From the IMG/VR virus record IMGVR_UViG_3300022928_000001: a stretch of DNA of 20,000 bases; one strand, 5' to 3'. The DNA is from an uncultured virus (IMG/VR IMGVR_UViG_3300022928_000001). Taxonomy: Duplodnaviria; Heunggongvirae; Uroviricota; Caudoviricetes. Numbering within the stretch: position 1 is the first letter of the stretch; each line of letters begins with the position of its first letter. Below, one piece after another: positions 3,001 to 14,048 of the stretch. A program made the position numbers and the translations under genes. Below the pieces are notes generated by a model, which was not told the origin of the DNA, did not search any database, and saw nothing but the letters and a program-made list of their open reading frames with translations.

Positions 3001-4889
3001 TAAAAGCATATGCAGATGAACTTTCTAAAATAACAAAATTAGATACAGGCTATCCTCCTATTACCGAGCAATGGCTAGGTGGGAATATTGAGTCAGACAT
3101 GGCTACAGTTTCTAATAGAGCACAAAGAAAAGAATTTTTGCAAGAATTTATTAATAATAAAAATCAAATATTTTCTGAGCAAAACATGAAGCTAATAAAA
3201 CAGGTTTATGGAAATGACTTTACTGACGCTCTTAAAAACATTCTTGAAAGAATGGAAACTGGCCAAAATCGTAAAAAAGGTAAAGACAAGGAATTCAACG
3301 CAGCAATGAATTGGATTAACCAATCCGTAGGTGCGGTTATGTCTATTAACATGCGTTCCGCTTTGCTTCAACAAATGTCTATTGTTAATTACTTAAACTG
3401 GAATTTTAATAATCCTATTAAAATGGGATTAGCTATGGCTAATGTCCCTCAGTTTATGAAAGATTACATTAAGATATTAAACTCCGATTTTTTAAAAGAA
3501 AGAAGAGGAGGTATGGCAATTGAAGTTAATTTATCAGATATAGCAGACTCAACTCCAGGTAATTTATTCCAAAGGCTAAACAAAAAAGTTTTAGAATTAG
3601 GATTTAAGCCTACTCAATGGGGTGATAGTAATGCTATTGCATTTGGTGGAGCTTCGTGGTATAGAAATAGATATAATCAATTAATTAAAGAAGGTTTATC
3701 TGAATCTGAAGCGGATGCTCAAGCTATGTTAGAATTTCAAGAAGTTACAGAAACCTCTCAACAGTCATCAAGGGTTGATAAAGTCTCTAGACAACAAGCT
3801 TCAGATATAGGTAGACTTATATTAGCATTTGCTAATACACCATTACAGTATGCTCGTGAAACTAGAAAAGCAACTTCTGATTTAATAAATGGAAGAGGTG
3901 ATTGGAGAACAAATGCTTCAAAAATAATTTATTATGGAGTTGCCCAAAACTTAATATTTACCGCTTTACAGCAAGGTTTATTTTCTTTGTTAATTGGTGA
4001 TGATGATGATGACGAAGAAAAAAGAAACAAAAAATTAAATTATGCAGTAAACGGAGTTTTAGACGGCATACTTAGAGGTATGGGTTACGCAGGAGCGGTA
4101 GTATCCGCGCTTAAAAACTTAAGTATGGAGTACTACGATCAATATCAAAAAAGACAAGCTGGAGAAAGAGTATATGACGGTTCCTTAAAGCTTATACAAA
4201 AGGGTCTTTCAATTTCTCCTCCTATTAGCAAAAAAATAGGTGATATTGTAGAAGCCCAAAAGTTTGAAACATGGAGACAATATAAAAACGACCCGTTTTA
4301 TCAAGCTTTTGCTTACGCTAATTATGTTTCAGGAATAACTAATTTGCCGGTTGATCGTGTTTTTAAGAAAATAGAAAACTTAAAAGCCGCTTCACTGGAA
4401 AGTACTGAAACGTGGCAATCTTTGTTTTTGTCTTTAGGTTGGTCGCCTTATAATGTAGGTGTAGAATATCCTAAAAAAGTTGGAAAGAAAAAAATAATAA
4501 AAATTTCAAAACCAAAAGAACTTAAACAATATAAGCCTATTGGTGGTAGTAAAAGAAAAAAGAAATCTTTAACTGGTATAGGTTCTGGAATTCCTAAAGT
4601 TTTACCTAAAGGTGTTTTAGGTAGAGCTAATCGCGATGGCAGCATTGAAGTTGCTGAAGGATTATCTCCTACTAAAAAAAAGCAAGTAATTGCTCATGAA
4701 CAAAAGCATCAAGAGGATATGAAATCTGGAAAACTAGATTATAATAAAAAATTTATTTATTGGAATAATGAAAAGTATAAAAGAACAGCTGATAAAAAAA
4801 TAAATTATAAAGGAAAATTATATATTGAAGGTTCTCCGGCTTTACCTTGGGAAAAAGCTGCAAATAAAGCTGAAAAAAAAATTAATTAA
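3..4889 (+). CDS. Giant polyvalent probable virion/ejection protein (5'-truncated by window), with internal HAD phosphatase domain and C-terminal HExxH zincin-like module
   Basis: The frame is open from base 3 with no stop before the ATG at 237, so at least 1628 codons. HAD motifs are FDFDDTL (2037-2057), VLTAR, K and FFADD (about 2439-2453). HEQKH lies at 4695-4709, followed by PWEKAA. The body is helical with hydrophobic C-terminal segments. The virion role is inferred from size and strand context. Confidence 0.8.
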   Translation, partial: SDDLLSTIKNAAKKALATVSKKVDDIKFKSDVSKSFKDDLYKLIKDAKGLKNTKTNPGLTKAIEESPEAFYNSLSIESMRMARAKGGVNPFEQAGLLKRDSNGDLQKVKFSNDILSKFLNYYTDESLKPAARSDRQMNLIEALVTSMGAREAINLLENDIEFRKRFAEQQQQEQSKNVFEQAANKIKNIFQKSFVKSIKEFAAFGKTWKAIAKDFNINVLLDSKNEADVLEFQNWVAETATRFLPRSFFTSGTFAGAGTSAPSRNFYYTSVEQLNESIKNSSFAKEDSDIEAAVTKQNYTSGVGSKRKIQDKFLKGLWGSAKLQEQNKSKLEGLKKIFLAFESMIKEDPNNAKFIIAMLSSTSQGMGGFVRVSAPINFIAKNLFGVIVEEHTLPASLVAKYLFNQAMNQTVNKGFNGIKNNYFQGALAKIDDNKLAGLGPDGRPYNYKERTPPGWTLLDNIWARYFNKNVNSTSNGIDPNNIVLANNKTVAEEFNVGFDGSIIPDVKKLQQEAIAEQTEDQVENLIDRAIAKLTELTGTEGTLQTNIGAVPINIIIGGLRATKLAYQGGKALADAIADGYKKVKGYMSAKEWSDFVTQYTSEVKNEKNPSQVKLAILSEKGVAQVQEQARKTNEALLNSLGIETEGLTTEEIVDKINTLRKAKVAAANKKAPTKKARVFDFDDTLAKTKSNVLYTLPDGTSGSLDATQFAEQYSELQEAGATFDYSEFSQVKDGSKGPLAVLAKKFTEAKGDRDVFVLTARPADSAKAIQEFLRSTLGISIPLQNITGLANGKPSAKAFWIAEKVSEGYNDVFFADDAAANVKAVASMLDNLGVTKRVQQAKETDQKSLEDEMDSIIRGKKRSKIAKFLSKINIYIPPGADDFAGLLQYFQAKGKLGEEQMQWFQDNLLIPFSKGIAAFTSAKVTLASDFKELNKRFKNTKTLGVSSKFRKLLDKKVLDGLYTNEQAVRAYLYDKAGEDLGINKADAQDLISLVEGNSELKAYADELSKITKLDTGYPPITEQWLGGNIESDMATVSNRAQRKEFLQEFINNKNQIFSEQNMKLIKQVYGNDFTDALKNILERMETGQNRKKGKDKEFNAAMNWINQSVGAVMSINMRSALLQQMSIVNYLNWNFNNPIKMGLAMANVPQFMKDYIKILNSDFLKERRGGMAIEVNLSDIADSTPGNLFQRLNKKVLELGFKPTQWGDSNAIAFGGASWYRNRYNQLIKEGLSESEADAQAMLEFQEVTETSQQSSRVDKVSRQQASDIGRLILAFANTPLQYARETRKATSDLINGRGDWRTNASKIIYYGVAQNLIFTALQQGLFSLLIGDDDDDEEKRNKKLNYAVNGVLDGILRGMGYAGAVVSALKNLSMEYYDQYQKRQAGERVYDGSLKLIQKGLSISPPISKKIGDIVEAQKFETWRQYKNDPFYQAFAYANYVSGITNLPVDRVFKKIENLKAASLESTETWQSLFLSLGWSPYNVGVEYPKKVGKKKIIKISKPKELKQYKPIGGSKRKKKSLTGIGSGIPKVLPKGVLGRANRDGSIEVAEGLSPTKKKQVIAHEQKHQEDMKSGKLDYNKKFIYWNNEKYKRTADKKINYKGKLYIEGSPALPWEKAANKAEKKIN

Positions 4890-5479: not shown

Positions 5480-5524
5480 ATAAAAAAAGGGGTAACCATT
5501 TACGGCTACCCCTTTATTTTTTTT
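5480..5524. terminator. Bidirectional intrinsic terminator between convergent modules
   Basis: Perfect 9-bp stem AAAGGGGTA (5486-5494) / TACCCCTTT (5507-5515), extended inward by 2 C-G pairs, loop ATTTAC. An A-run on the left and a T-run on the right give a U-tail on both strands. Confidence 0.9.
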
Positions 5525-7265
5525 ACCCATCACAAGATATGCAACTAGGATCCATTGCTTTTGCGGCTATATCGCCTCGCAATACTGATTCTGTACGCAT
5601 ATAATATAATGTTTTTATACCTCTTTTCCAAGCTTCAAAATGTACCTGATTAATCCATCTAGGCTCTGCTTCTGAAGGGAAAGCTAAATTAAGTGATACC
5701 GACTGATCTATATAATCTTGCCGTATACCCGCTTGACCAACCAATTCTAATTGGTTTATTTCTTTAAATGTTTTAAATACATTTTTAACTGGCTCACCAT
5801 CTTCTTGAGTTAGTCGTCCGAGGTGGTCGTAAAACCATCCATCGAGTTCTTTAATTCCTTGAACGGATCCACCATCTTCCAAAATTTTATCCCAAATTTC
5901 TTTGGTATCGATACCAATCTTTTTAAATACTTTTTTAAGTTCATTGTTTTTGCGTATAAACGTTCCTTTAGCTGATTGCTCTGTAAATACATTAGCAGCC
6001 CAAGGCTCAATTCCAGGAGATATATTGCCACTAAGCTTACTATTAGAGACTGTAGGGGCCACAGACCGAAGATGAGTGTTACGCATACCAGTACCCACAC
6101 ACCAGAGAGGCTCCCCATATATTTCTGCAAGCTTTCTTGACGCTCTTTCAGATTCAATTTTAATTTTACTAAAAATTTCACGTGTTTTAAATTGTGCTAA
6201 TAATCCTTCAAAAGCAATTCCTTTTTGCTGCAACAAAGTATGCCAACCTAAAACACCTAAGCCAACTGCTCGGCCTTTTTCAGCACTACGTATAGCATTC
6301 TCAAAGCCTTTCATGTTTTTAGCTTTTTGTATAAACTCTTCCATCACTCCATCTAAAAACCAAATAGCATCGTAAATAAGATTAGTATTTTTCCATTCAT
6401 CATACTTTGCAAGGTTTACTGAAGACAAACAACAAACAAAACTATGCGATTCATCTGTATGCAATGTAATTTCACTGCATATGTTTGTCATATGTACTTT
6501 TAAGCTATTGCTTTTGTAAGCATCTGGATTAGCTTTGTTCGTATTGCCTTTAAAGAGGATATACGGCTCCCCAGTAGCTTTACGTTTTTGGAGTAGTTTT
6601 GACCACCTCGATCTTGCTTCTTGATCTCCGCCCTCGAGTCTTCGCATAAACTTATCGCCAACGACAGCACACTGATGTAGGTTAAGAGATTGCCTGTTGA
6701 CGTCACCTTTAGGTTCTCTGATTTCCAACCATTCATCAAAATCAGGGTGTTCGATATTGAGATTAACGGATGCAGCCCCTCTTCGTACTGATCCTTGATT
6801 GGTCGCGAGTATAGTTGAGTCATAGATTTTGCAAAAAGGGACAACTCCATCTGATGTTCCATTACCTGTAATTTTAGCTCCAGCGGGTCTTATCATATTA
6901 ATGCCAATACCTACACCCCCGCCGTGCTTTGCAAGCAGCATCATTTCTAAATTCTTTTGTCCAATATCATTTATACTATCTGCTACATCAATACCAAAGC
7001 AACTTATAGGTAAACCTCGGTCTGTGCCTGTATTAGACAACACTGGGGAAGCTAAACATAGCCACCCCTTCCATATATACTCAAAAAACTTTTCAGCCAG
7101 TTCTGGCTTATATAAACGCCTCGCTACTGAATTAGCTACTCTTTGATAGGCGTCTCTAGGTGATTCTCCTAAAAGCAAATATCCGCCTGTAATGGTTTTT
7201 TTATAAACCTCAGTGTCTCCCCAAGACGGATAGTCAACACCTTTTTTCCATTCTTTATTCCACAT
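5523..7265 (-). CDS. nrdA: Class I ribonucleotide reductase alpha subunit (short, no ATP-cone; NrdAi/class Id-like)
   Basis: Motifs RGLPISCF, GGGVG, TNICSEI (catalytic N-x-C-x-E), VAPTVSNS, KTLYY and C-terminal CISCDG. 580 aa with no N-terminal ATP-cone. Confidence 0.95.
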   Translation of the reverse strand: MWNKEWKKGVDYPSWGDTEVYKKTITGGYLLLGESPRDAYQRVANSVARRLYKPELAEKFFEYIWKGWLCLASPVLSNTGTDRGLPISCFGIDVADSINDIGQKNLEMMLLAKHGGGVGIGINMIRPAGAKITGNGTSDGVVPFCKIYDSTILATNQGSVRRGAASVNLNIEHPDFDEWLEIREPKGDVNRQSLNLHQCAVVGDKFMRRLEGGDQEARSRWSKLLQKRKATGEPYILFKGNTNKANPDAYKSNSLKVHMTNICSEITLHTDESHSFVCCLSSVNLAKYDEWKNTNLIYDAIWFLDGVMEEFIQKAKNMKGFENAIRSAEKGRAVGLGVLGWHTLLQQKGIAFEGLLAQFKTREIFSKIKIESERASRKLAEIYGEPLWCVGTGMRNTHLRSVAPTVSNSKLSGNISPGIEPWAANVFTEQSAKGTFIRKNNELKKVFKKIGIDTKEIWDKILEDGGSVQGIKELDGWFYDHLGRLTQEDGEPVKNVFKTFKEINQLELVGQAGIRQDYIDQSVSLNLAFPSEAEPRWINQVHFEAWKRGIKTLYYMRTESVLRGDIAAKAMDPSCISCDG

Positions 7266-7270
7266 CTAAT

Positions 7271-7417
7271 TTATTTTAGTTCTTTATCTTTCTTAAGCAT
7301 ATCTTTTTTATTAGTTCTAATATACTCAAGTATAGCTCCTGCTACTCTTACATCTGAATCAAACATATTGGTTAAATCAGATTCATATTCAAATAATTCT
7401 TGTAATGGTGTTTTCAT
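7271..7417 (-). CDS. Small hypothetical protein (48 aa, MKTPLQELFEYESD...KDKELK)
   Basis: Not in the ORF track; translated by hand. The ATG overlaps the upstream stop (TAATG at 7415-7419) and the ORF fills the gap to nrdA. Confidence 0.6.
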   Translation of the reverse strand: MKTPLQELFEYESDLTNMFDSDVRVAGAILEYIRTNKKDMLKKDKELK

Positions 7418-7767
7418 TATGCACTATATAAATAAATTAAATATCCTATTGTAACATTTACATTAACCGCAACTAAGTTCCATTGTTTTAAAACAAAAAC
7501 CTGCGGAGTTAATAATAAGCCGGCTATTACATATGTTATTCCTCCAATTTTACCATAGCTTAATAAATGCGGAGACATCATCATGAAAGCTGTGCCCATA
7601 TACCCTAATCTAAAAGAAAGTCTTTCAATAGCAGTTAATCTTCTATCGTGTACTAATGCTCTTAAAAATCTTTGTTTAAAACGATATTCACATTTCTTAC
7701 AGGTGCGTTTACCATAACGAAACTTATTTGTATTTTTTTCTTTATGGCATTTGTTACATTTTCTCAT
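7417..7767 (-). CDS. Zn-finger (CxxC...CxxC) plus about 3-TM membrane protein
   Basis: MRKCNKC...TCKKC followed by three hydrophobic segments including LLTPQV. The true start is probably the ATG at 7767 (TAATG overlap with the nrdB stop) rather than the TTG at 7773. Confidence 0.7.
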   Translation of the reverse strand: MRKCNKCHKEKNTNKFRYGKRTCKKCEYRFKQRFLRALVHDRRLTAIERLSFRLGYMGTAFMMMSPHLLSYGKIGGITYVIAGLLLTPQVFVLKQWNLVAVNVNVTIGYLIYLYSA

Positions 7768-8735
7768 TACCAAATATCTTCAAAATCTTCTCCTTCATTC
7801 GCTTTGGAATAGTCCGTGGGACGTACAGCAAAAAAGTCAGTATGAGTGTGACCACCAGTGAGATGGTAAAACCAATCGAGTTTGCTTGCTCCTTCGGCAT
7901 CATATTCAAAGTACTTCCTGATGTTTGTGTAACCAAGTTCATTGATTTTTTCATTAAGTCTTTTTCTAATAAATTGTTTGAGATCGTTGGCTTTAAGGTT
8001 TTCAATATCTCCTTGTTCGAACATTTTGTCAATATATCTTTCTTCTGCTTTAAGCATTGCTTCTGCTGCATCTATAACATCTTTTTTACAATCTTCTAAT
8101 AACTTAGGATCTTCTTGACACATATGCTTAAACAGCTGGCAACCCATCTTACTGTGTAATGATTCATCTCGCACAGACCATTTCATTTGTTGTCCAATAC
8201 CTTTTAAAAGATTTCTTAACTGGAAGCTATATAACACAGCAAAAGCAGAATATAAACTAACTCCTTCAGCAAAAGCACTAAAAATAGCCAACGATTTTGC
8301 AATACCAATTTTATCAGTTCCTTCATAGCTAACTAAATTATCAAAGCGTTCCATAGTAGCTTCGTCTTGTAAAAACGCTTCAAAGTTTTCTAATCCTAAT
8401 GTTTCATTTAAATAGCTATAAGCAACAGCGTGTATTGTTTCTTGCGAACCAAACATCATAGCCATTTGCTGTATTTCGTGCTTAGGAAACCAGCCTACTA
8501 CCTTTTGAGTCCAATAATCTGAAACGGCACATTCTGTTTGGGCAAAGCCTAATAAAATATTACCAACTAAGTTTTTTTCTGAATCAGTTAGTTTTTCGTT
8601 CCAATCCTTAACGTCACCTGACATTGGTATTTCGGTGTGCAACCAGAACGCTTGAGCTTGTTTAAGCCATCCCTCAGTATAGTACTCTGGATATTCAAAT
8701 GGTTTGTACGGTATTCTTTCATCAAATAATCCCAT
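7767..8735 (-). CDS. nrdB: Class I ribonucleotide reductase beta subunit (NrdBi/class Id-like)
   Basis: Ferritin-like metal ligands E68, E99-x-x-H102, AEGV and DESLH; Tyr106; FW-x-x-x-E; C-terminal DFFAVRPTDYSK. Confidence 0.95.
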   Translation of the reverse strand: MGLFDERIPYKPFEYPEYYTEGWLKQAQAFWLHTEIPMSGDVKDWNEKLTDSEKNLVGNILLGFAQTECAVSDYWTQKVVGWFPKHEIQQMAMMFGSQETIHAVAYSYLNETLGLENFEAFLQDEATMERFDNLVSYEGTDKIGIAKSLAIFSAFAEGVSLYSAFAVLYSFQLRNLLKGIGQQMKWSVRDESLHSKMGCQLFKHMCQEDPKLLEDCKKDVIDAAEAMLKAEERYIDKMFEQGDIENLKANDLKQFIRKRLNEKINELGYTNIRKYFEYDAEGASKLDWFYHLTGGHTHTDFFAVRPTDYSKANEGEDFEDIW

Positions 8736-9392: not shown

Positions 9393-9850
9393 TAGTCGCG
9401 CTTTCTTTTTCTGTTCTCTTTGATCAGCATCACCGTCCGGTCTACTTCTTTCTGGTTTTGCGGCTTGTAAAGCGTCTTTCCAATCTTGTTTTTTGTAAGC
9501 CATAATTTAAATAATTTCCATCTCAAAGGGAAAGACTCATTAGCCCTTCCCTTGCATTCTATTATGTAGTCTTTTCCAACGAAGTCAGGTGTATACTTAA
9601 TTCCCAAAACTTTTTTTTGCCCTCTGTTAGTATACTCACCCTTTCCGTTGGATTGTTTTTCGTAAGATTGATTTTCAAAATTAAATCCTTCGACCAACTG
9701 GAAAACTTCATTTTCATAACCTTCAAATAATTTTTCTTTTTTTAAAGCCATATAAGTATACCGTTCTAAGCCTGACGCAAAGTTTATTCCGTCATAAGAT
9801 ATTTTTTTAGCTTGTACAGGTCCTCGCTTTTTACTACGTTTTTTTACCAT
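9392..9850 (-). CDS. T7 endonuclease I-like PD-(D/E)XK nuclease / Holliday junction resolvase
   Basis: FASGLE...YTPDF...IIECKG matches the endo I F-x-SGLE / YTPDF / E-x-KG motifs. Confidence 0.8.
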   Translation of the reverse strand: MVKKRSKKRGPVQAKKISYDGINFASGLERYTYMALKKEKLFEGYENEVFQLVEGFNFENQSYEKQSNGKGEYTNRGQKKVLGIKYTPDFVGKDYIIECKGRANESFPLRWKLFKLWLTKNKIGKTLYKPQNQKEVDRTVMLIKENRKRKRD

Positions 9851-10125
9851 GTTCTATCTTCTACCCATCTTTCAGGGCTTTTATGCTTACTAAAGCTATC
9901 TTCTTCTTCGTAATCTTTAAGTATCTTTTCTTCAAGAGCGTTACTTGTTTCCATCTTAAGCTTTTGAATATAGTTTACAGCATCCATTAATTCTTCTTGT
10001 AAGTGATTAAGCCATTTATGTAAGCTAGGTTCATCATCGTGTAAAGTAACACCGTATTTTTTATAACCTACATCGCTTCGTTCTTTGAACTTATCGATTA
10101 CTTGTTTAATTATTTTATCACGCAT
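9844..10125 (-). CDS. Small all-alpha protein, possible MazG-like NTP pyrophosphatase fold
   Basis: GYKKYG...WLNHLQEELMDAVNY contains an EExxD acidic helix. Confidence 0.5.
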   Translation of the reverse strand: MRDKIIKQVIDKFKERSDVGYKKYGVTLHDDEPSLHKWLNHLQEELMDAVNYIQKLKMETSNALEEKILKDYEEEDSFSKHKSPERWVEDRTW

Positions 10126-10912
10126 CTTTTACAAATGTTCCGTTAACCATCTTACCTGTGCGCCCAGCTATTACCTTATAAGCTGAATCTATACAGTCTT
10201 CTATATTATATCCTTTAAGCTTAGCTAAGTTTGTTAAAACAACAACCATATCACCTATAGCATCTATAAATTCAGGCTCGTCGTTTTTTAATATAGCTTG
10301 AGCTAATTCTCCAGCTTCTTCCATAAGCTTAATATATTGTGTTCTTACGTCGCCGGTTTTATATATACCTTTTTCTTCAGCCCATTCTCTAATTAATTCA
10401 AATTGATCCTGATTAGAGTATAGCTTTTCTTTATCTTTTTGAAACGGGCCAGCCATGTGCATAGCTTTATTATATACAAAGCTACGGCTTTTATTAAACA
10501 TAGATTCTTTAATATTGTCTAATATCCATTCTATTTTATCGGTTGAATCTATTTTAATATTGCCATATGGTGTTTCCCATTCAAGCTCCGCTAAAAATGC
10601 TCCATCAATATCATTTTTTGATACAGCAAATGTAGTTGTTTGATCCGTTACATTAACTTGTTTACTCATAGGTTTTTTAAATAATTTATCATAAGGTTTT
10701 ATATCAACTTTATAACCTAAGTCTTTTTGTAATTGTCTTTCAGCGTTAGCAGCCTCTTTTATATCATCTGTTTCAAATAATATTTCATATTCTCCAGGTT
10801 TAAAACCCTGTTCATCAACAACTCTTTTTTGTATATTAGTTGTACAGCCTATCTTTTTACCTAGTATATGATAAACTTTATATTTACCTGTGCTTACTGC
10901 TGATATTCCCAT
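10118..10912 (-). CDS. Fusion: N-terminal GIY-YIG-like domain, central unknown domain, C-terminal MazG-like NTP pyrophosphatase
   Basis: N-terminus YKVYHI..KKIGCTTNIQKR...AANAE. C-terminus IREWAEEKG...KLMEEAGELAQAI...DAIGDMVVVL...AYKVIAGRTGKMVNGTFVKD, the typical phage MazG pattern. Confidence 0.8.
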   Translation of the reverse strand: MGISAVSTGKYKVYHILGKKIGCTTNIQKRVVDEQGFKPGEYEILFETDDIKEAANAERQLQKDLGYKVDIKPYDKLFKKPMSKQVNVTDQTTTFAVSKNDIDGAFLAELEWETPYGNIKIDSTDKIEWILDNIKESMFNKSRSFVYNKAMHMAGPFQKDKEKLYSNQDQFELIREWAEEKGIYKTGDVRTQYIKLMEEAGELAQAILKNDEPEFIDAIGDMVVVLTNLAKLKGYNIEDCIDSAYKVIAGRTGKMVNGTFVKDA

Positions 10913-11250
10913 CTTACAATATAATATTTGTTATCTTGACCTCTAAGCAAAGCATCTCTTTTTATTTCGCCTGGTCTAATCATATAATCAGATTTCCAAT
11001 TAGATTCAATAACTGCATCCATATCAGAATCTGATTCAAAAGAATCTATAACTTTAGCTTTAAGCATTATACTTTCATAATCACCTTCATACCTAGGTAA
11101 ATAATCTGATGTTGCTATAATTTTACCTTGTTGTACTGGAGCAATATAAAAATCGTCTGTCATTGTAACAAATTGTGACCCTGAATAATATACATAATCA
11201 AATTGTGCAAATGTAAATAAAGGTAATAATAATAATAATAATATTCTCAT
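10894..11250 (-). CDS. Secreted hypothetical protein with Sec signal peptide
   Basis: MRILLLLLLPLFTFA|Q: basic n-region, Leu-rich h-region, cleavage site followed by Gln. Confidence 0.7.
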   Translation of the reverse strand: MRILLLLLLPLFTFAQFDYVYYSGSQFVTMTDDFYIAPVQQGKIIATSDYLPRYEGDYESIMLKAKVIDSFESDSDMDAVIESNWKSDYMIRPGEIKRDALLRGQDNKYYIVRWEYQQ

Positions 11251-11260
11251 AATTTTAGTT

Positions 11261-12082
11261 TTAAGTTCCTACTGATAATTTTGCTTTTATTGGTTTATGC
11301 GGGTCGTAATCAAACAACATCACATCATTTATTTTTGGTAATACTAGTTCATTATCTCTTTCAAATATTCCACAACCTAATTTTACTTTAGGTGGTTTTT
11401 TAATGCTCCTAGAAAGCTGTTCTTTAACTTGCTCAAAATGATTATTATATATATGACAATCACCTAAACTAATAGTTAGTCTTCTTGGTTCTAATAAAGC
11501 TCCTTTAGCAAGCATTTCTAATAACAAGCCATACATTGCAATATCATAAGGCAAGCCTAAAAATAAATCTGCTGATCTTTGTTGAAGCATTAAATCTAAG
11601 TGTGTACCATCACTATATAGTTGGAAACTATGGTGACAAGGAGGCAATACCATATCAGGCATATCAACTGGGTTCCACGCAGATAGCATAAGTCTACGAG
11701 AGGTGGGATTTTCTTTGAGTTCTCTAACAACGGCTCTAAGCTGATCAACACCATTAAAATTGCGCCACTGATGCCCATATACAGGTCCCAATGTGCCATC
11801 CGTTCTTCCTGATCTTTTATAATCGGCGTCCCAATACCTAACGCCGTTAGAATGAAGATAATCAAGATCGACACGACCGTTGATGATCCATAATATCTCC
11901 GCAATAGCATTTTTAAAATATATTTTTTTAGTTGTTAATAAAGGAAATCCTAAAGCCATATCATGCCTGATAACTCTGCCAAACACTGATTTTGTTCCAG
12001 TTCCTGTTCTATCTGGTTTATCATAACCTCCATGCAATGTGCCTGAAAGTAAACCTAAGTATTCTTCTTCTATATTAATCAT
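11261..12082 (-). CDS. thyA: Thymidylate synthase homolog with Asn-to-Asp specificity switch (possible dCMP methyltransferase)
   Basis: Motifs DRTGTGT, FPLLTTKK, LGPVYGHQWR, SRR, SAWN, LPPCH (C149), QRSADLFLG and DCHIY. Residue 180, equivalent to E. coli N177, is Asp (GAT, 11543-11545). Confidence 0.9.
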   Translation of the reverse strand: MINIEEEYLGLLSGTLHGGYDKPDRTGTGTKSVFGRVIRHDMALGFPLLTTKKIYFKNAIAEILWIINGRVDLDYLHSNGVRYWDADYKRSGRTDGTLGPVYGHQWRNFNGVDQLRAVVRELKENPTSRRLMLSAWNPVDMPDMVLPPCHHSFQLYSDGTHLDLMLQQRSADLFLGLPYDIAMYGLLLEMLAKGALLEPRRLTISLGDCHIYNNHFEQVKEQLSRSIKKPPKVKLGCGIFERDNELVLPKINDVMLFDYDPHKPIKAKLSVGT

Positions 12083-12354
12083 TGTTTATCATAATAGTAT
12101 TTACACATTTCAAACATTGCATCCCAAACCTGATTTTTATCATATATATGTTTGCTTTTATAAACTTTTTTATAATTATCAGGTGTTGAAATACCTATAT
12201 ACCATTTACCCGGAGTATTTTGTATACCTATAGGACTTATTATAATATTGCTTTTAACGCAATAATCATAATATTTTTGTTGTTCTTTTGATATGTTAAA
12301 TTCAGGTAATTTATATTTAGCCTGTTCTTTTTGTCTTTTAGTTAAAGTTCCCAT
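12079..12354 (-). CDS. Hypothetical protein (91 aa)
   Basis: Overlaps both neighbours (ATGA with thyA); protein-like composition. Confidence 0.7.
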   Translation of the reverse strand: MGTLTKRQKEQAKYKLPEFNISKEQQKYYDYCVKSNIIISPIGIQNTPGKWYIGISTPDNYKKVYKSKHIYDKNQVWDAMFEMCKYYYDKQ

Positions 12355-14048
12355 GGCATTTCATTTACCGCCACATTTTCATGAGGCACATAGTTACCAC
12401 TTATATGGTCCCATTTGAAATGGGCTTCTGCCTGGTTTTCACCGAGGTTTTGAAATTTAACTTTAAGAACTTTAACTTTGACTGTTTTATTATTGTAATC
12501 CCTGTGAACAAGCAAGCCATGATAAGAAGCATCATACCACTCACCACCTCCTTTAATAGAATACATAGTTGGTTCATCAATTGTGCCATCGTCTTTTTTA
12601 TACATTTTAGTTGGATGTGCAACTATTATAACTAACACATCATACTTCTTAGCAAAAGCTTCTATTCTAGTTAAGTACTCCATAGTAGCATCAGGTATGC
12701 TCATTTTTTCAGCACCCTTCATTTTAACTTTATTATATGGATCAATAACTAAACACTTTATTCCTTTGCGTTTAACAAGTTCTGCGCCTTTAGCTAAAAC
12801 AGCATCTAAATCATATCTTTCGTTTTCAATAAAATAAAAGTTATCGTTTACTAAAGATTTTACATCATTCCATTTATTGCTACCTATATCCTCTTTACTT
12901 GGCATCCAATTGCCTATTTTGCGCATTAATTTATGAGCATGTAAGAATGTAGGTTTATTTTCTGGAGACGCAAAAGCAGTTTTCCAACCATATTTTAATT
13001 GGTATCCCACCACCATTCTATCAACAAAATCAGACTTCCCGCTGCTAGGAACGCCTGTAACGGTGATGAATTGTCCCGTGTAAGTACTGAATATGCTATC
13101 AAAGTTATCAAGACCGACTTGATACCCAGGTTTAAAACCTTCTTGAATAAATTCCTGTAGTTCATCGTCTATATCATTTAATGTTATTACGTTTTCAAGA
13201 GGAACAGGGCTAGCTTCATTAACAAGACGCTTGAGCATAGACCCGCCGTAAGCCATAATATATTCATTAGCATCTTTGAGACCTGAGAAGTTAAGTGTAT
13301 AGCATACTTCAGCTCCAAAACGTCTAATGAGTTCTTGTTGTAAATTTTGGCCGGCTTCATCTCCGTCAACGGCAATGATGATTTTCTTTTTGTCATTGAA
13401 ATATTCAATGCAATTGTCGAGGTAATCAAGATTAAGGCGATTAAGAGTAGCTCCGTTTGGTACAGAGACCACACTATCGATCTTAGATTCCACAAAAGAT
13501 AAAGCATCCATCTCGCCTTCCACAATAACAACATAGTCGTGCCCAACAGTGCTATCAATATTATAGAATACTTTTTCTGCCCCTTTAACAAGTTTAAAAT
13601 TCTTTCTACCATCTCTATATTTTATATTTATAAGTTCATTATTAATAAAATAATTGAATTGAATTGTGTTCTCTTCTTTAGATGTTTGAGGCATCCATTC
13701 AGGACCCTCTGTAATTTTCATTTTAATTAAAGTACGTTGTGATATTCCTCTACTTTCAAACCATTTAACAGCCCTGTCGCTAAGCATTACATCATTCTTC
13801 CACTCTGGTTTTATATAAACCTTATCAGCTTCTCCTTTGCGTTGAAAGGTATGTAATTGAAAAACCTCATCACAGTTCATACAAGTACCAAGACCACGAT
13901 CCCAATCATACATAGCGCATTTAGCTTTACGATTCTCGGGTTTTCTATCAGCAGAGCAAAGAGGGCATACACCCTCTTTTTTCCCTACCTCAAGATCATA
14001 TTGATTGAACTGGTCAATCTTAAAACCATTGATCTCTGTTGTATTCAT
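12342..14048 (-). CDS. T7 gp4/Twinkle-like DNA primase-helicase
   Basis: Zn ribbon CPLC...CMNC, TOPRIM IVEGEMDALS and DGDEAG, Walker A GVPSSGKS, Walker B LVIDPY, and VAHP. Confidence 0.93.
   Translation of the reverse strand: MNTTEINGFKIDQFNQYDLEVGKKEGVCPLCSADRKPENRKAKCAMYDWDRGLGTCMNCDEVFQLHTFQRKGEADKVYIKPEWKNDVMLSDRAVKWFESRGISQRTLIKMKITEGPEWMPQTSKEENTIQFNYFINNELINIKYRDGRKNFKLVKGAEKVFYNIDSTVGHDYVVIVEGEMDALSFVESKIDSVVSVPNGATLNRLNLDYLDNCIEYFNDKKKIIIAVDGDEAGQNLQQELIRRFGAEVCYTLNFSGLKDANEYIMAYGGSMLKRLVNEASPVPLENVITLNDIDDELQEFIQEGFKPGYQVGLDNFDSIFSTYTGQFITVTGVPSSGKSDFVDRMVVGYQLKYGWKTAFASPENKPTFLHAHKLMRKIGNWMPSKEDIGSNKWNDVKSLVNDNFYFIENERYDLDAVLAKGAELVKRKGIKCLVIDPYNKVKMKGAEKMSIPDATMEYLTRIEAFAKKYDVLVIIVAHPTKMYKKDDGTIDEPTMYSIKGGGEWYDASYHGLLVHRDYNNKTVKVKVLKVKFQNLGENQAEAHFKWDHISGNYVPHENVAVNEMPWEL

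Follow-up and report, generated by a model that had tools for sequence, protein, structure and literature searches.

The window analyzed here, a 20,000-nucleotide stretch of the uncultured Caudoviricetes virus IMGVR_UViG_3300022928_000001 (IMG/VR), encodes a member of the ThyA family in which the residue that sets base specificity, Asn177 in Escherichia coli ThyA, is a conserved Asp (Asp180). Judged by its sequence, the enzyme is probably a deoxycytidine monophosphate (dCMP) methylase that makes 5-methyl-dCMP, and we consider the chances about even that the virion DNA carries largely 5-methylcytosine (5mC) in place of cytosine. The principle that leads from Asp177 to dCMP and on to modified cytosine is already established, has been validated experimentally, and has been applied to metaviromes. 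A preliminary description of the window had proposed a dCMP substrate and modified cytosine for this gene; the proposal agrees with the published Asn177Asp rule and with the reported activity of five of seven such enzymes, and its novelty was overrated, because the same residue rule had already been applied to IMG/VR contigs. We found no paper on this Asp clade of Flavobacteriaceae phages, and the absence of a recognizable kinase, deaminase, and polymerase is the sole point at which the system goes beyond the published cassettes.

A full-length ThyA homolog with Asp at the base-specificity position

The protein is a full-length member of the ThyA/thymidylate synthase (TS) superfamily. It matched PF00303 with an E value of 3e-86 from residue 7 to residue 271, covering profile positions 2 to 266 of 266, and PHROG 160 (thymidylate synthase) with an E value of 4e-97. 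Its score of 266.5 against the NCBIfam model TIGR03284 (thymidylate synthase) exceeded the cut-off of 108.35, so automatic pipelines would label it thymidylate synthase. JGI does name its homologs in this way, as had been anticipated when it was suggested that annotators would call the gene thyA. An AlphaFold2 model built from a 30-sequence alignment had a mean predicted local distance difference test score of 95.4 and was uncertain only at the last three residues. Foldseek aligned this model to solved TS structures, including the E. coli, human, and Mycobacterium tuberculosis enzymes, with template modeling (TM) scores of 0.87-0.93; the best solved structure was 6auj, the ThyA of Elizabethkingia (TM 0.87-0.92; 47% identity). 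For sequence comparisons, E. coli K-12 ThyA, T4 gp42, the Xp12 TS homolog, and RB69 gp48 were taken from their own genome records. Over its full length the protein is 41% identical to E. coli ThyA; identity falls to 30% with the Xp12 enzyme (237 residues) and to 22% with T4 gp42 (144 residues).

The ThyA motifs that had been listed in the preliminary description were all found as given: DRTG at residue 24, AEILW at 61, RYWD at 82, GPVYG at 99, SRR at 128, PPCH at 147, RSAD at 169, PYD at 178, and HIY at 210. The catalytic Cys is residue 149 and the Asp, encoded by GAT, is residue 180, a spacing of 31 residues. Both alignment to E. coli K-12 ThyA and pairwise BLASTP placed Cys149 on Cys146 and Asp180 on Asn177, in agreement with the equivalence assumed earlier, and the local motif reads LGLPYDIAMY where E. 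coli ThyA has LGLPFNIASY. The other catalytic and nucleotide-binding residues of ThyA are kept (Table 1), and most of them are invariant in the 30-sequence alignment. The protein also retains a C-terminal tail, IKAKLSVGT, which is two residues longer than that of E. coli ThyA. We considered whether the longer tail distinguishes the Asp clade and rejected the idea, as the Asn-type TS of Bacillus phage Deep Blue ends in VSVGL.

Asp180 is conserved throughout a clade of related phages

Asp180 is genuine and is conserved far beyond what chance or sequencing error would produce. Among the 120 closest protein clusters (clustered at 90% identity; 61-92% identical to the query), 119 read Tyr-Asp at this site and the remaining one reads Phe-Asn-Ser, which makes at least 119 Asp-type clusters. 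Met follows three residues on in 114 of 121 aligned sequences, query included. We then compared 80 IMG/VR loci and found a clean division: all 43 with at least 54% identity to the query carry Asp, and all 37 with at most 47% identity carry Asn. The Asp-type loci read Tyr-Asp without exception and have, at position 180 of E. coli ThyA, Met in 42 cases and Ile in one; the Asn-type loci all read Phe-Asn, with Ser at that position in 36 and Cys in one. The Asn that dUMP-type enzymes (dUMP, deoxyuridine monophosphate) require at E. coli position 177 is thus replaced by Asp across the clade, whereas Trp80, Tyr94, Leu143, Cys146, His147, and Asp169 (E. coli numbering) are kept in 80 of 80 loci. Conservation of the PYD motif across homologs had been put forward as a check on the earlier proposal, and these counts (119 of 120 clusters and 43 of 43 close viral loci) bear it out.

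We also considered sequencing error at the Asp codon. Contigs from two other salt-marsh runs are identical to the window over 10900-11704 and 10900-11697, respectively, and positions 11543-11545 are unchanged in the four metagenome runs compared, among the matches listed. Because the residue is conserved in clusters and loci and is the same in contigs of other runs, an error was rejected; this had been named at the outset as a way in which the proposal might fail. Where this clade and Xp12 have Asp, they also have Tyr at the preceding position (Tyr179), but the pairing is not exclusive, as 17 Asn-type representatives also have Tyr.

Published residue rules point to methylation of dCMP

Yang et al. 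(2021) aligned 433 TS sequences from viromes and reported Asp177 in cytosine-modified contigs; positions 177 and 147 best separated the TS of cytosine-modified contigs from those of unmodified contigs, with 177 ranking first and 147 second (PMC8670742). The E. coli N177D and Lactobacillus casei N229D mutants are cited in the same study and in PMC13326640 as having switched preference to dCMP, giving 5-methyl-dCMP. According to a 2024 preprint in which IMG/VR contigs were filtered by Asp177, five of seven Asp-type enzymes, together with the Xp12 enzyme, gave 5-methyldeoxycytidine (5mdC) in vivo when the T4 deoxynucleoside monophosphate (dNMP) kinase was co-expressed (bioRxiv 10.1101/2024.12.05.627091).

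Other positions bear on the product. Park et al. (2019) described a hydroxymethylase signature consisting of Asp or Glu three residues before the catalytic Cys, Ser or Thr two residues before the Tyr, and the lack of a C-terminal tail; the acidic residue activates the substrate water, the T4 D145N mutant is inactive, and in TS water is kept out by Leu143, Trp83, and the tail (PMC6400193). Lee et al. (2026) restated the rules for positions 177 and 143 and reported D169N as the mark of flavin-dependent 5-hydroxy-dCMP synthases (PMC13326640). In our protein, Leu146 stands three residues before the Cys (Leu occupies this site in 80 of 80 viral loci), Pro100 stands two residues before Tyr102 in G-P-V-Y, and the tail is present, so the hydroxymethylase signature is absent. 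The 5-hydroxylase mark is absent too, with Asp172 at the site where RB69 gp48 has Asn186. Asp177, a retained Asp169, and a non-acidic residue three before the Cys occur here as Asp180, Asp172, and Leu146, and in Xp12 as Asp, Asp, and Asn. By the published rules, Asp180, Leu146, Pro100-Val101-Tyr102, Asp172, and the retained tail together would predict an enzyme that acts on dCMP and transfers a methyl group. The preliminary description had allowed either a methyl or a hydroxymethyl product; these rules narrow the choice toward methyl.

Relationships within the ThyA family

A search of 1.84 billion cluster representatives returned 16,158 proteins at an E value of 1e-3 or better. Among the best 150 of these 16,158 (38-53% identity), position 177 was Asn in 136, Asp in 13, and Ser in one, and the Asp types varied at 147 (His, Pro, or Trp), 176, and 180. 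Judged by these sequences, Asp occurs in several ThyA lineages. In a quick maximum-likelihood tree of 78 rows, our clade (18 rows) and two other Asp representatives fell in one starred group (99), which was nested among the ThyA-like sequences of a 75-row set with Xp12, T4 gp42, and RB69 gp48 outside. Constraining the clade to unite with Xp12 lowered the log-likelihood by 27 with an approximately unbiased (AU) test p value of 0.219, a comparison made across long branches and with a group named after the tree had been seen. An origin independent of the Xp12 enzyme was suggested by the free tree, but we dropped it because this p value does not reject a common clade. In sequence, the protein resembles ordinary ThyA much more than it does the Xp12 enzyme.

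We also asked where the gene might have come from. Cellular ThyA proteins are all at most 47% identical and come from many phyla, so no donor could be named for a host-derived origin. A megablast search of positions 10000-14000 found no near-identical DNA in the phage collection, from which records very close to the window may be missing, and no member of the Asp clade was found there either; the best protein matches were at most 47.6% identical, and the four that were checked (H1, H2, H4, and H21) all read PFNIASY and are of the Asn type. Three structural relatives, Maribacter phage Panino, Flavobacterium phage elemoF, and MW202828, contain no PF00303 gene.

The source contig and its likely hosts

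The window is the right half (contig positions 19101-39100) of a 39,283-base IMG/VR viral contig with an estimated completeness of 59%. The genome is AT-rich, with a GC content of 32.5%. Structural genes make up the contig's left half, with terminase, portal, and virion protein genes and a giant open reading frame (ORF). The nearest relatives of the portal protein, at 42-50% identity, belong to podophages of Flavobacterium, Cellulophaga, Maribacter, and Tenacibaculum. Fourteen salt-marsh metagenome runs contain the stretch at 0.62-0.97 of sampled words, and one of them is possibly the source run.

One relative, 61.8 kb long and 94% complete, is collinear with the contig. Together with four relatives estimated at 100%, two of which have terminal repeats, it makes up the set of five near-complete relatives used below (G001-G005; loci L009, L019, L022, L017, and L046; 94-100% complete). 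The part of G001, the closest complete relative, that extends beyond our contig holds tail fibers, lysis genes, GroEL/GroES, and small ORFs without assigned function.

Several further features of these genomes were observed in passing. The same phage module occurs on two contigs (L094 and L095) binned in metagenome-assembled genomes of Flavobacteriaceae, one of them labeled Flaviramulus sp.; this is either a hint of the host or a binning artifact, and one of the two contigs, at 117 kb, is roughly double the size of the phage genome. The giant ORF (∼2,486 amino acids, plus strand, contig 16529-23989, ending at window position 4889) closes the structural module. Its 1,628-residue part within the window had no Pfam match and matched a PHROG named polynucleotide kinase weakly (residues 665-853, E 6.6e-5), and MW202828, a structural relative, has an 11.6-kb coding sequence at the matching place. 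The GroEL-like and GroES-like chaperonins of G001 (L090:11119-12947; PHROG 5725, E 4e-130, and PHROG 3188) fall in the part of the genome outside our contig, and the annotation of MW202828 also has GroEL/GroES.

The TS homolog lies in a replication and nucleotide-metabolism module

The gene belongs to a minus-strand module comprising ligase, Erf, a PDDEXK exonuclease, a primase-helicase, a 90-residue ORF, the TS homolog, a 117-residue ORF, a MazG-like protein, a 92-residue ORF, a DUF1064 resolvase-like protein, and a class I ribonucleotide reductase (RNR) (Table 1). We counted neighbors over the 43 Asp-type loci, a set that includes many short contigs. The DUF1064 gene was present in 40 of them, the large RNR subunit in 33, and the small subunit in 38; the RNR is the supply of deoxynucleoside diphosphates for the module. 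The 117-residue ORF between the MazG-like and TS genes, which has a signal-like N terminus, looks like a variable insert in a fixed gene order.

Table 1. Coordinates (window positions) and residue equivalences of the features described in the text. Fractions refer to the 43 Asp-type loci.
Feature	Position	Strand	Basis or remark
ThyA-family gene, predicted deoxycytidylate C5-methyltransferase (5-methyl-dCMP synthase)	11261..12082	minus	273 aa; PF00303, AlphaFold2 model
Catalytic Cys149 codon (E. coli Cys146)	11636..11638	minus	invariant in 30-sequence alignment
Asp180 codon GAT (E. coli Asn177, base-specificity residue)	11543..11545	minus	alignment, conservation
Tyr179 codon (E. coli Phe176)	11546..11548	minus	alignment
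Leu146 codon (E. coli Leu143, three before Cys)	11645..11647	minus	hydrophobic; hydroxymethylases have Asp/Glu here
Asp172 codon (E. coli Asp169), kept	11567..11569	minus	not the D169N type of 5-hydroxy-dCMP synthases
R25 = E. coli R21			
E62 = E. coli E58			
W84 = E. coli W80			
Y102 = E. coli Y94			
R129/R130 = E. coli R126/R127			
L146 = E. coli L143			
H150 = E. coli H147			
Q168 = E. coli Q165			
R169 = E. coli R166			
D172 = E. coli D169			
H210 = E. coli H207			
Y212 = E. coli Y209			
Primase-helicase, always upstream of TS gene	12342..14048	minus	PHROG 239 8e-81, Toprim domains; 43/43
90-aa basic protein, overlaps TS start	12079..12354	minus	31/43; no family match
117-aa protein, hydrophobic N terminus	10894..11250	minus	11/43; no Pfam/PHROG match
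MazG-like NTP pyrophosphohydrolase with GIY-YIG/T5orf172-like N-terminal domain, candidate dCTPase	10118..10912	minus	42/43, next to TS gene
92-aa conserved protein between MazG-like and DUF1064 genes	9844..10125	minus	35/43; invariant Q43 E44 E45 D48
Class I RNR, large (5523-7265) and small (7767-8735) subunits with a 117-aa ORF between	5523..8735	minus	PHROG 84 7e-147, PHROG 86 2e-70

The MazG-like protein matched PHROG 1992 (7e-30) and PHROG 715 (4e-29) and, in Pfam, MazG (1.7e-6), PRA-PH (3.6e-5), and T5orf172 (4.8e-4). Its metal-binding residues E198, E199, E202, D217, and D221 are invariant, and the closest solved relative is 1vmg, a MazG-type protein of Sulfolobus. The fusion of the N-terminal domain to MazG is stable in 42 of the 43 loci. 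Across 17 sequences, Y14, H15, G18, K20, G22, T24, R30, and E58 of this N-terminal domain are invariant, and the middle region is conserved too. A PRA-PH domain is a reported partner of Asp-type TS genes (PMC8670742; bioRxiv 10.1101/2024.12.05.627091), and according to the preprint the usual TS neighbors are genes for a PRA-PH pyrophosphohydrolase, a dCMP-type deaminase, and a family A polymerase. The 92-residue protein, which has an EExxD-like motif, was considered as a second MazG-like enzyme and rejected (hhalign probability 0.3%; no Pfam or PDB match).

Comparison with characterized systems

The enzyme of phage Xp12 (MT664984, coding sequence 45326-46195) shares with ours the ThyA family, Asp177, G-L-P-Y-D, a retained Asp169, and a residue other than Asp or Glu three before the Cys. 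Its production of 5mdC has been validated, and in Xp12 DNA cytosine is fully replaced by 5mC (in part from bioRxiv 10.1101/2024.12.05.627091). Xp12 also encodes a class I RNR and a ligase, as here. The Xp12 enzyme differs in having Asn at 143 and Pro at 147, where ours has Leu and His, and its gene lies beside those for a dCMP-type deaminase and dihydrofolate reductase (DHFR), whereas no deaminase gene was found in any of the five near-complete relatives. The E. coli N177D and L. casei N229D mutants resemble our protein in being otherwise ordinary ThyA with Asn changed to Asp; unlike these mutants, ours represents a natural, conserved clade with the coupled changes Phe176Tyr and Ser180Met.

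The metavirome TS described with MetaGPA (Yang et al. 2021, and the 2024 mSCD preprint) are, like ours, from uncultured viruses and have Asp177 and a PRA-PH/MazG-type partner. In the modified contigs reported there, 70% of deaminase genes lie within 3 kb of TS, whereas in the five near-complete relatives we found neither a deaminase nor a family A polymerase. T4 gp42 likewise has the ThyA fold and Asp at the specificity position, and a MazG-superfamily dCTPase, gp56, supplies its dCMP. It differs in its Asp145, three before the Cys, in its Ser94, and in lacking a C-terminal tail, and its product is hydroxymethylated (PMC6400193).

Discussion

If the enzyme is a dCMP methylase, as we think probable, it would be a folate-dependent ThyA-family enzyme retuned from dUMP to dCMP. 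Cys149 would attack C6 of dCMP, and Asp180 would read and protonate cytosine N3/N4 where Asn177 would read uracil. A methylene group would come from methylenetetrahydrofolate, followed by hydride reduction while Leu146, Trp84, and the C-terminal tail keep the active site closed, and the products would be 5-methyl-dCMP and dihydrofolate. The adjoining MazG-like pyrophosphatase may convert dCTP to dCMP, both feeding the enzyme and removing the competing unmodified dCTP; this role is proposed by analogy with T4 and from the published co-occurrence. The 5-methyl-dCMP would then be phosphorylated, by host or unrecognized kinases, and would replace cytosine in the phage DNA, which could protect that DNA from restriction.

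A number of observations weigh against this reading. The product is read from sequence rules, and for two of its seven Asp-type enzymes the preprint reports no 5mdC (bioRxiv 10.1101/2024.12.05.627091). The rule for position 143 is loose, since the validated Xp12 methylase has Asn rather than a hydrophobic residue; what seems to count at this site is that no acidic residue stands there, rather than that a hydrophobic one does. Our protein keeps His150 (E. coli His147) at the position ranked second for separating modified from unmodified contigs, and Xp12, T4, and RB69 all have another residue there. The specificity of the MazG-like protein for dCTP is itself taken from the T4 analogy and the published pairing, and when we considered the protein as a homolog of the T4 dCTPase gp56, BLASTP gave only a 20-residue match at chance level. 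Further objections concern partners. Published assays needed a co-expressed phage dNMP kinase to place the base in DNA (PMC13326640; bioRxiv 10.1101/2024.12.05.627091), and a Walker A scan of the contig and the closest complete relative revealed no P-loop kinase, matching only the primase-helicase (the sole helicase-type motif) and, by chance, the ligase ORF. PHROG and Pfam scans of the contig ORFs, the rest of G001, and representatives of the neighbor families found no DHFR, kinase, or glycosyltransferase. Neither a dCMP-type deaminase (0 of 5) nor a family A or B DNA polymerase was found in the five near-complete relatives, and the neighbor-family representatives from related loci contained no deaminase. 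Because these partners were not found, host or unrecognized proteins must carry 5-methyl-dCMP through to DNA and supply the dTMP. The missing partners are the main evidence against full replacement of cytosine and the main difference from the Xp12 cassette. The five relatives do encode a primase-helicase, and the window module shared by related loci also has ligase, Erf, exonuclease, and RNR. Replication therefore uses either a host polymerase or one of an unrecognized type.

Given these gaps, we weighed the possibility that 5-methyl-dCMP serves mainly as a dUMP-independent route to thymidylate, in which dCTP would be turned into dCMP and on into 5-methyl-dCMP or 5-methyl-dCTP, and a host deaminase would yield dTMP or dTTP from these, or that dUMP is still accepted; in both cases phage DNA would have little or no 5mC. 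Each of the five near-complete relatives has exactly one PF00303 gene and none has ThyX, so this gene is their sole TS. A GC content of 32.5% implies a high demand for thymidine, and part of the 5-methyl-dCTP pool of Xp12 has been proposed to be deaminated to dTTP (bioRxiv 10.1101/2024.12.05.627091). The lack of a recognized phage dNMP kinase, and an active site that retains His150 and is mostly that of ThyA, would also suit such a route. We nevertheless regard it as unlikely. Without a deaminase gene in any of the five relatives it would depend wholly on the host, whereas the published systems described in the preprint encode a phage deaminase adjoining the TS gene; an Asp strictly conserved over a large clade, together with a pyrophosphatase that would destroy dCTP, fits cytosine replacement better; and in viromes Asp177 was reported to be associated with modified DNA (PMC8670742).

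A dCMP hydroxymethylase like T4 gp42, supplying 5-hydroxymethyl-dCMP as a base for further decoration, appears less probable still. T4 gp42 does share the Asp, and the tail of our protein is longer than that of E. coli ThyA, with its last three residues modeled at low confidence; however, the similar tail of the Asn-type Deep Blue TS makes such a tail compatible with methylation. Leu146, Pro100, and the tail itself depart from the hydroxymethylase signature, of which the single change D145N is enough to abolish T4 hydroxymethylation (PMC6400193), and the similarity to gp42 is confined to 22% identity over 144 residues. Scans of ORFs and neighbor-family representatives of related loci, and of the closest complete relative, also turned up no glycosyltransferase or carbamoyltransferase. 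The recent demonstration that the ThyA fold supports unexpected chemistry (PMC13326640) raises the further alternative of a flavin-dependent 5-hydroxy-dCMP synthase of the RB69 gp48/DLP3 gp80 type, or of some other or no activity. This we consider very improbable, as D169N is absent, Asp172 is invariant in the 30-sequence alignment and kept in all 80 viral loci, and every residue of folate-dependent catalysis is retained; the strong conservation also argues against an inactive protein.

Returning to the dCMP methylase, we tentatively suggest, while holding it rather doubtful, that this lineage of Flavobacteriaceae podophages exchanges cytosine for 5mC with a kit of two genes, a nearly unchanged ThyA bearing Asn177Asp and a MazG-like dCTPase, and without a DNA polymerase, dNMP kinase, deaminase, or DHFR of its own. 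The 5-methyl-deoxycytidine nucleotides would then be handled by the replisome and kinases of the host, or else a new type of kinase would lie among the conserved small ORFs or in the GIY-YIG-like N-terminal domain of the MazG-like protein.

The gene is currently labeled thymidylate synthase in public databases. The enzyme is a natural counterpart of the N177D and N229D laboratory mutants and would be useful for studying how ThyA can switch substrate with minimal change. If our reading is correct, a widespread group of marine and salt-marsh Flavobacteriaceae phages, with at least 119 protein clusters at 90% identity, has 5mC-substituted DNA. Such substitution would affect escape from host restriction, and virome methods based on restriction, bisulfite, or deaminases would be biased against or for these phages.

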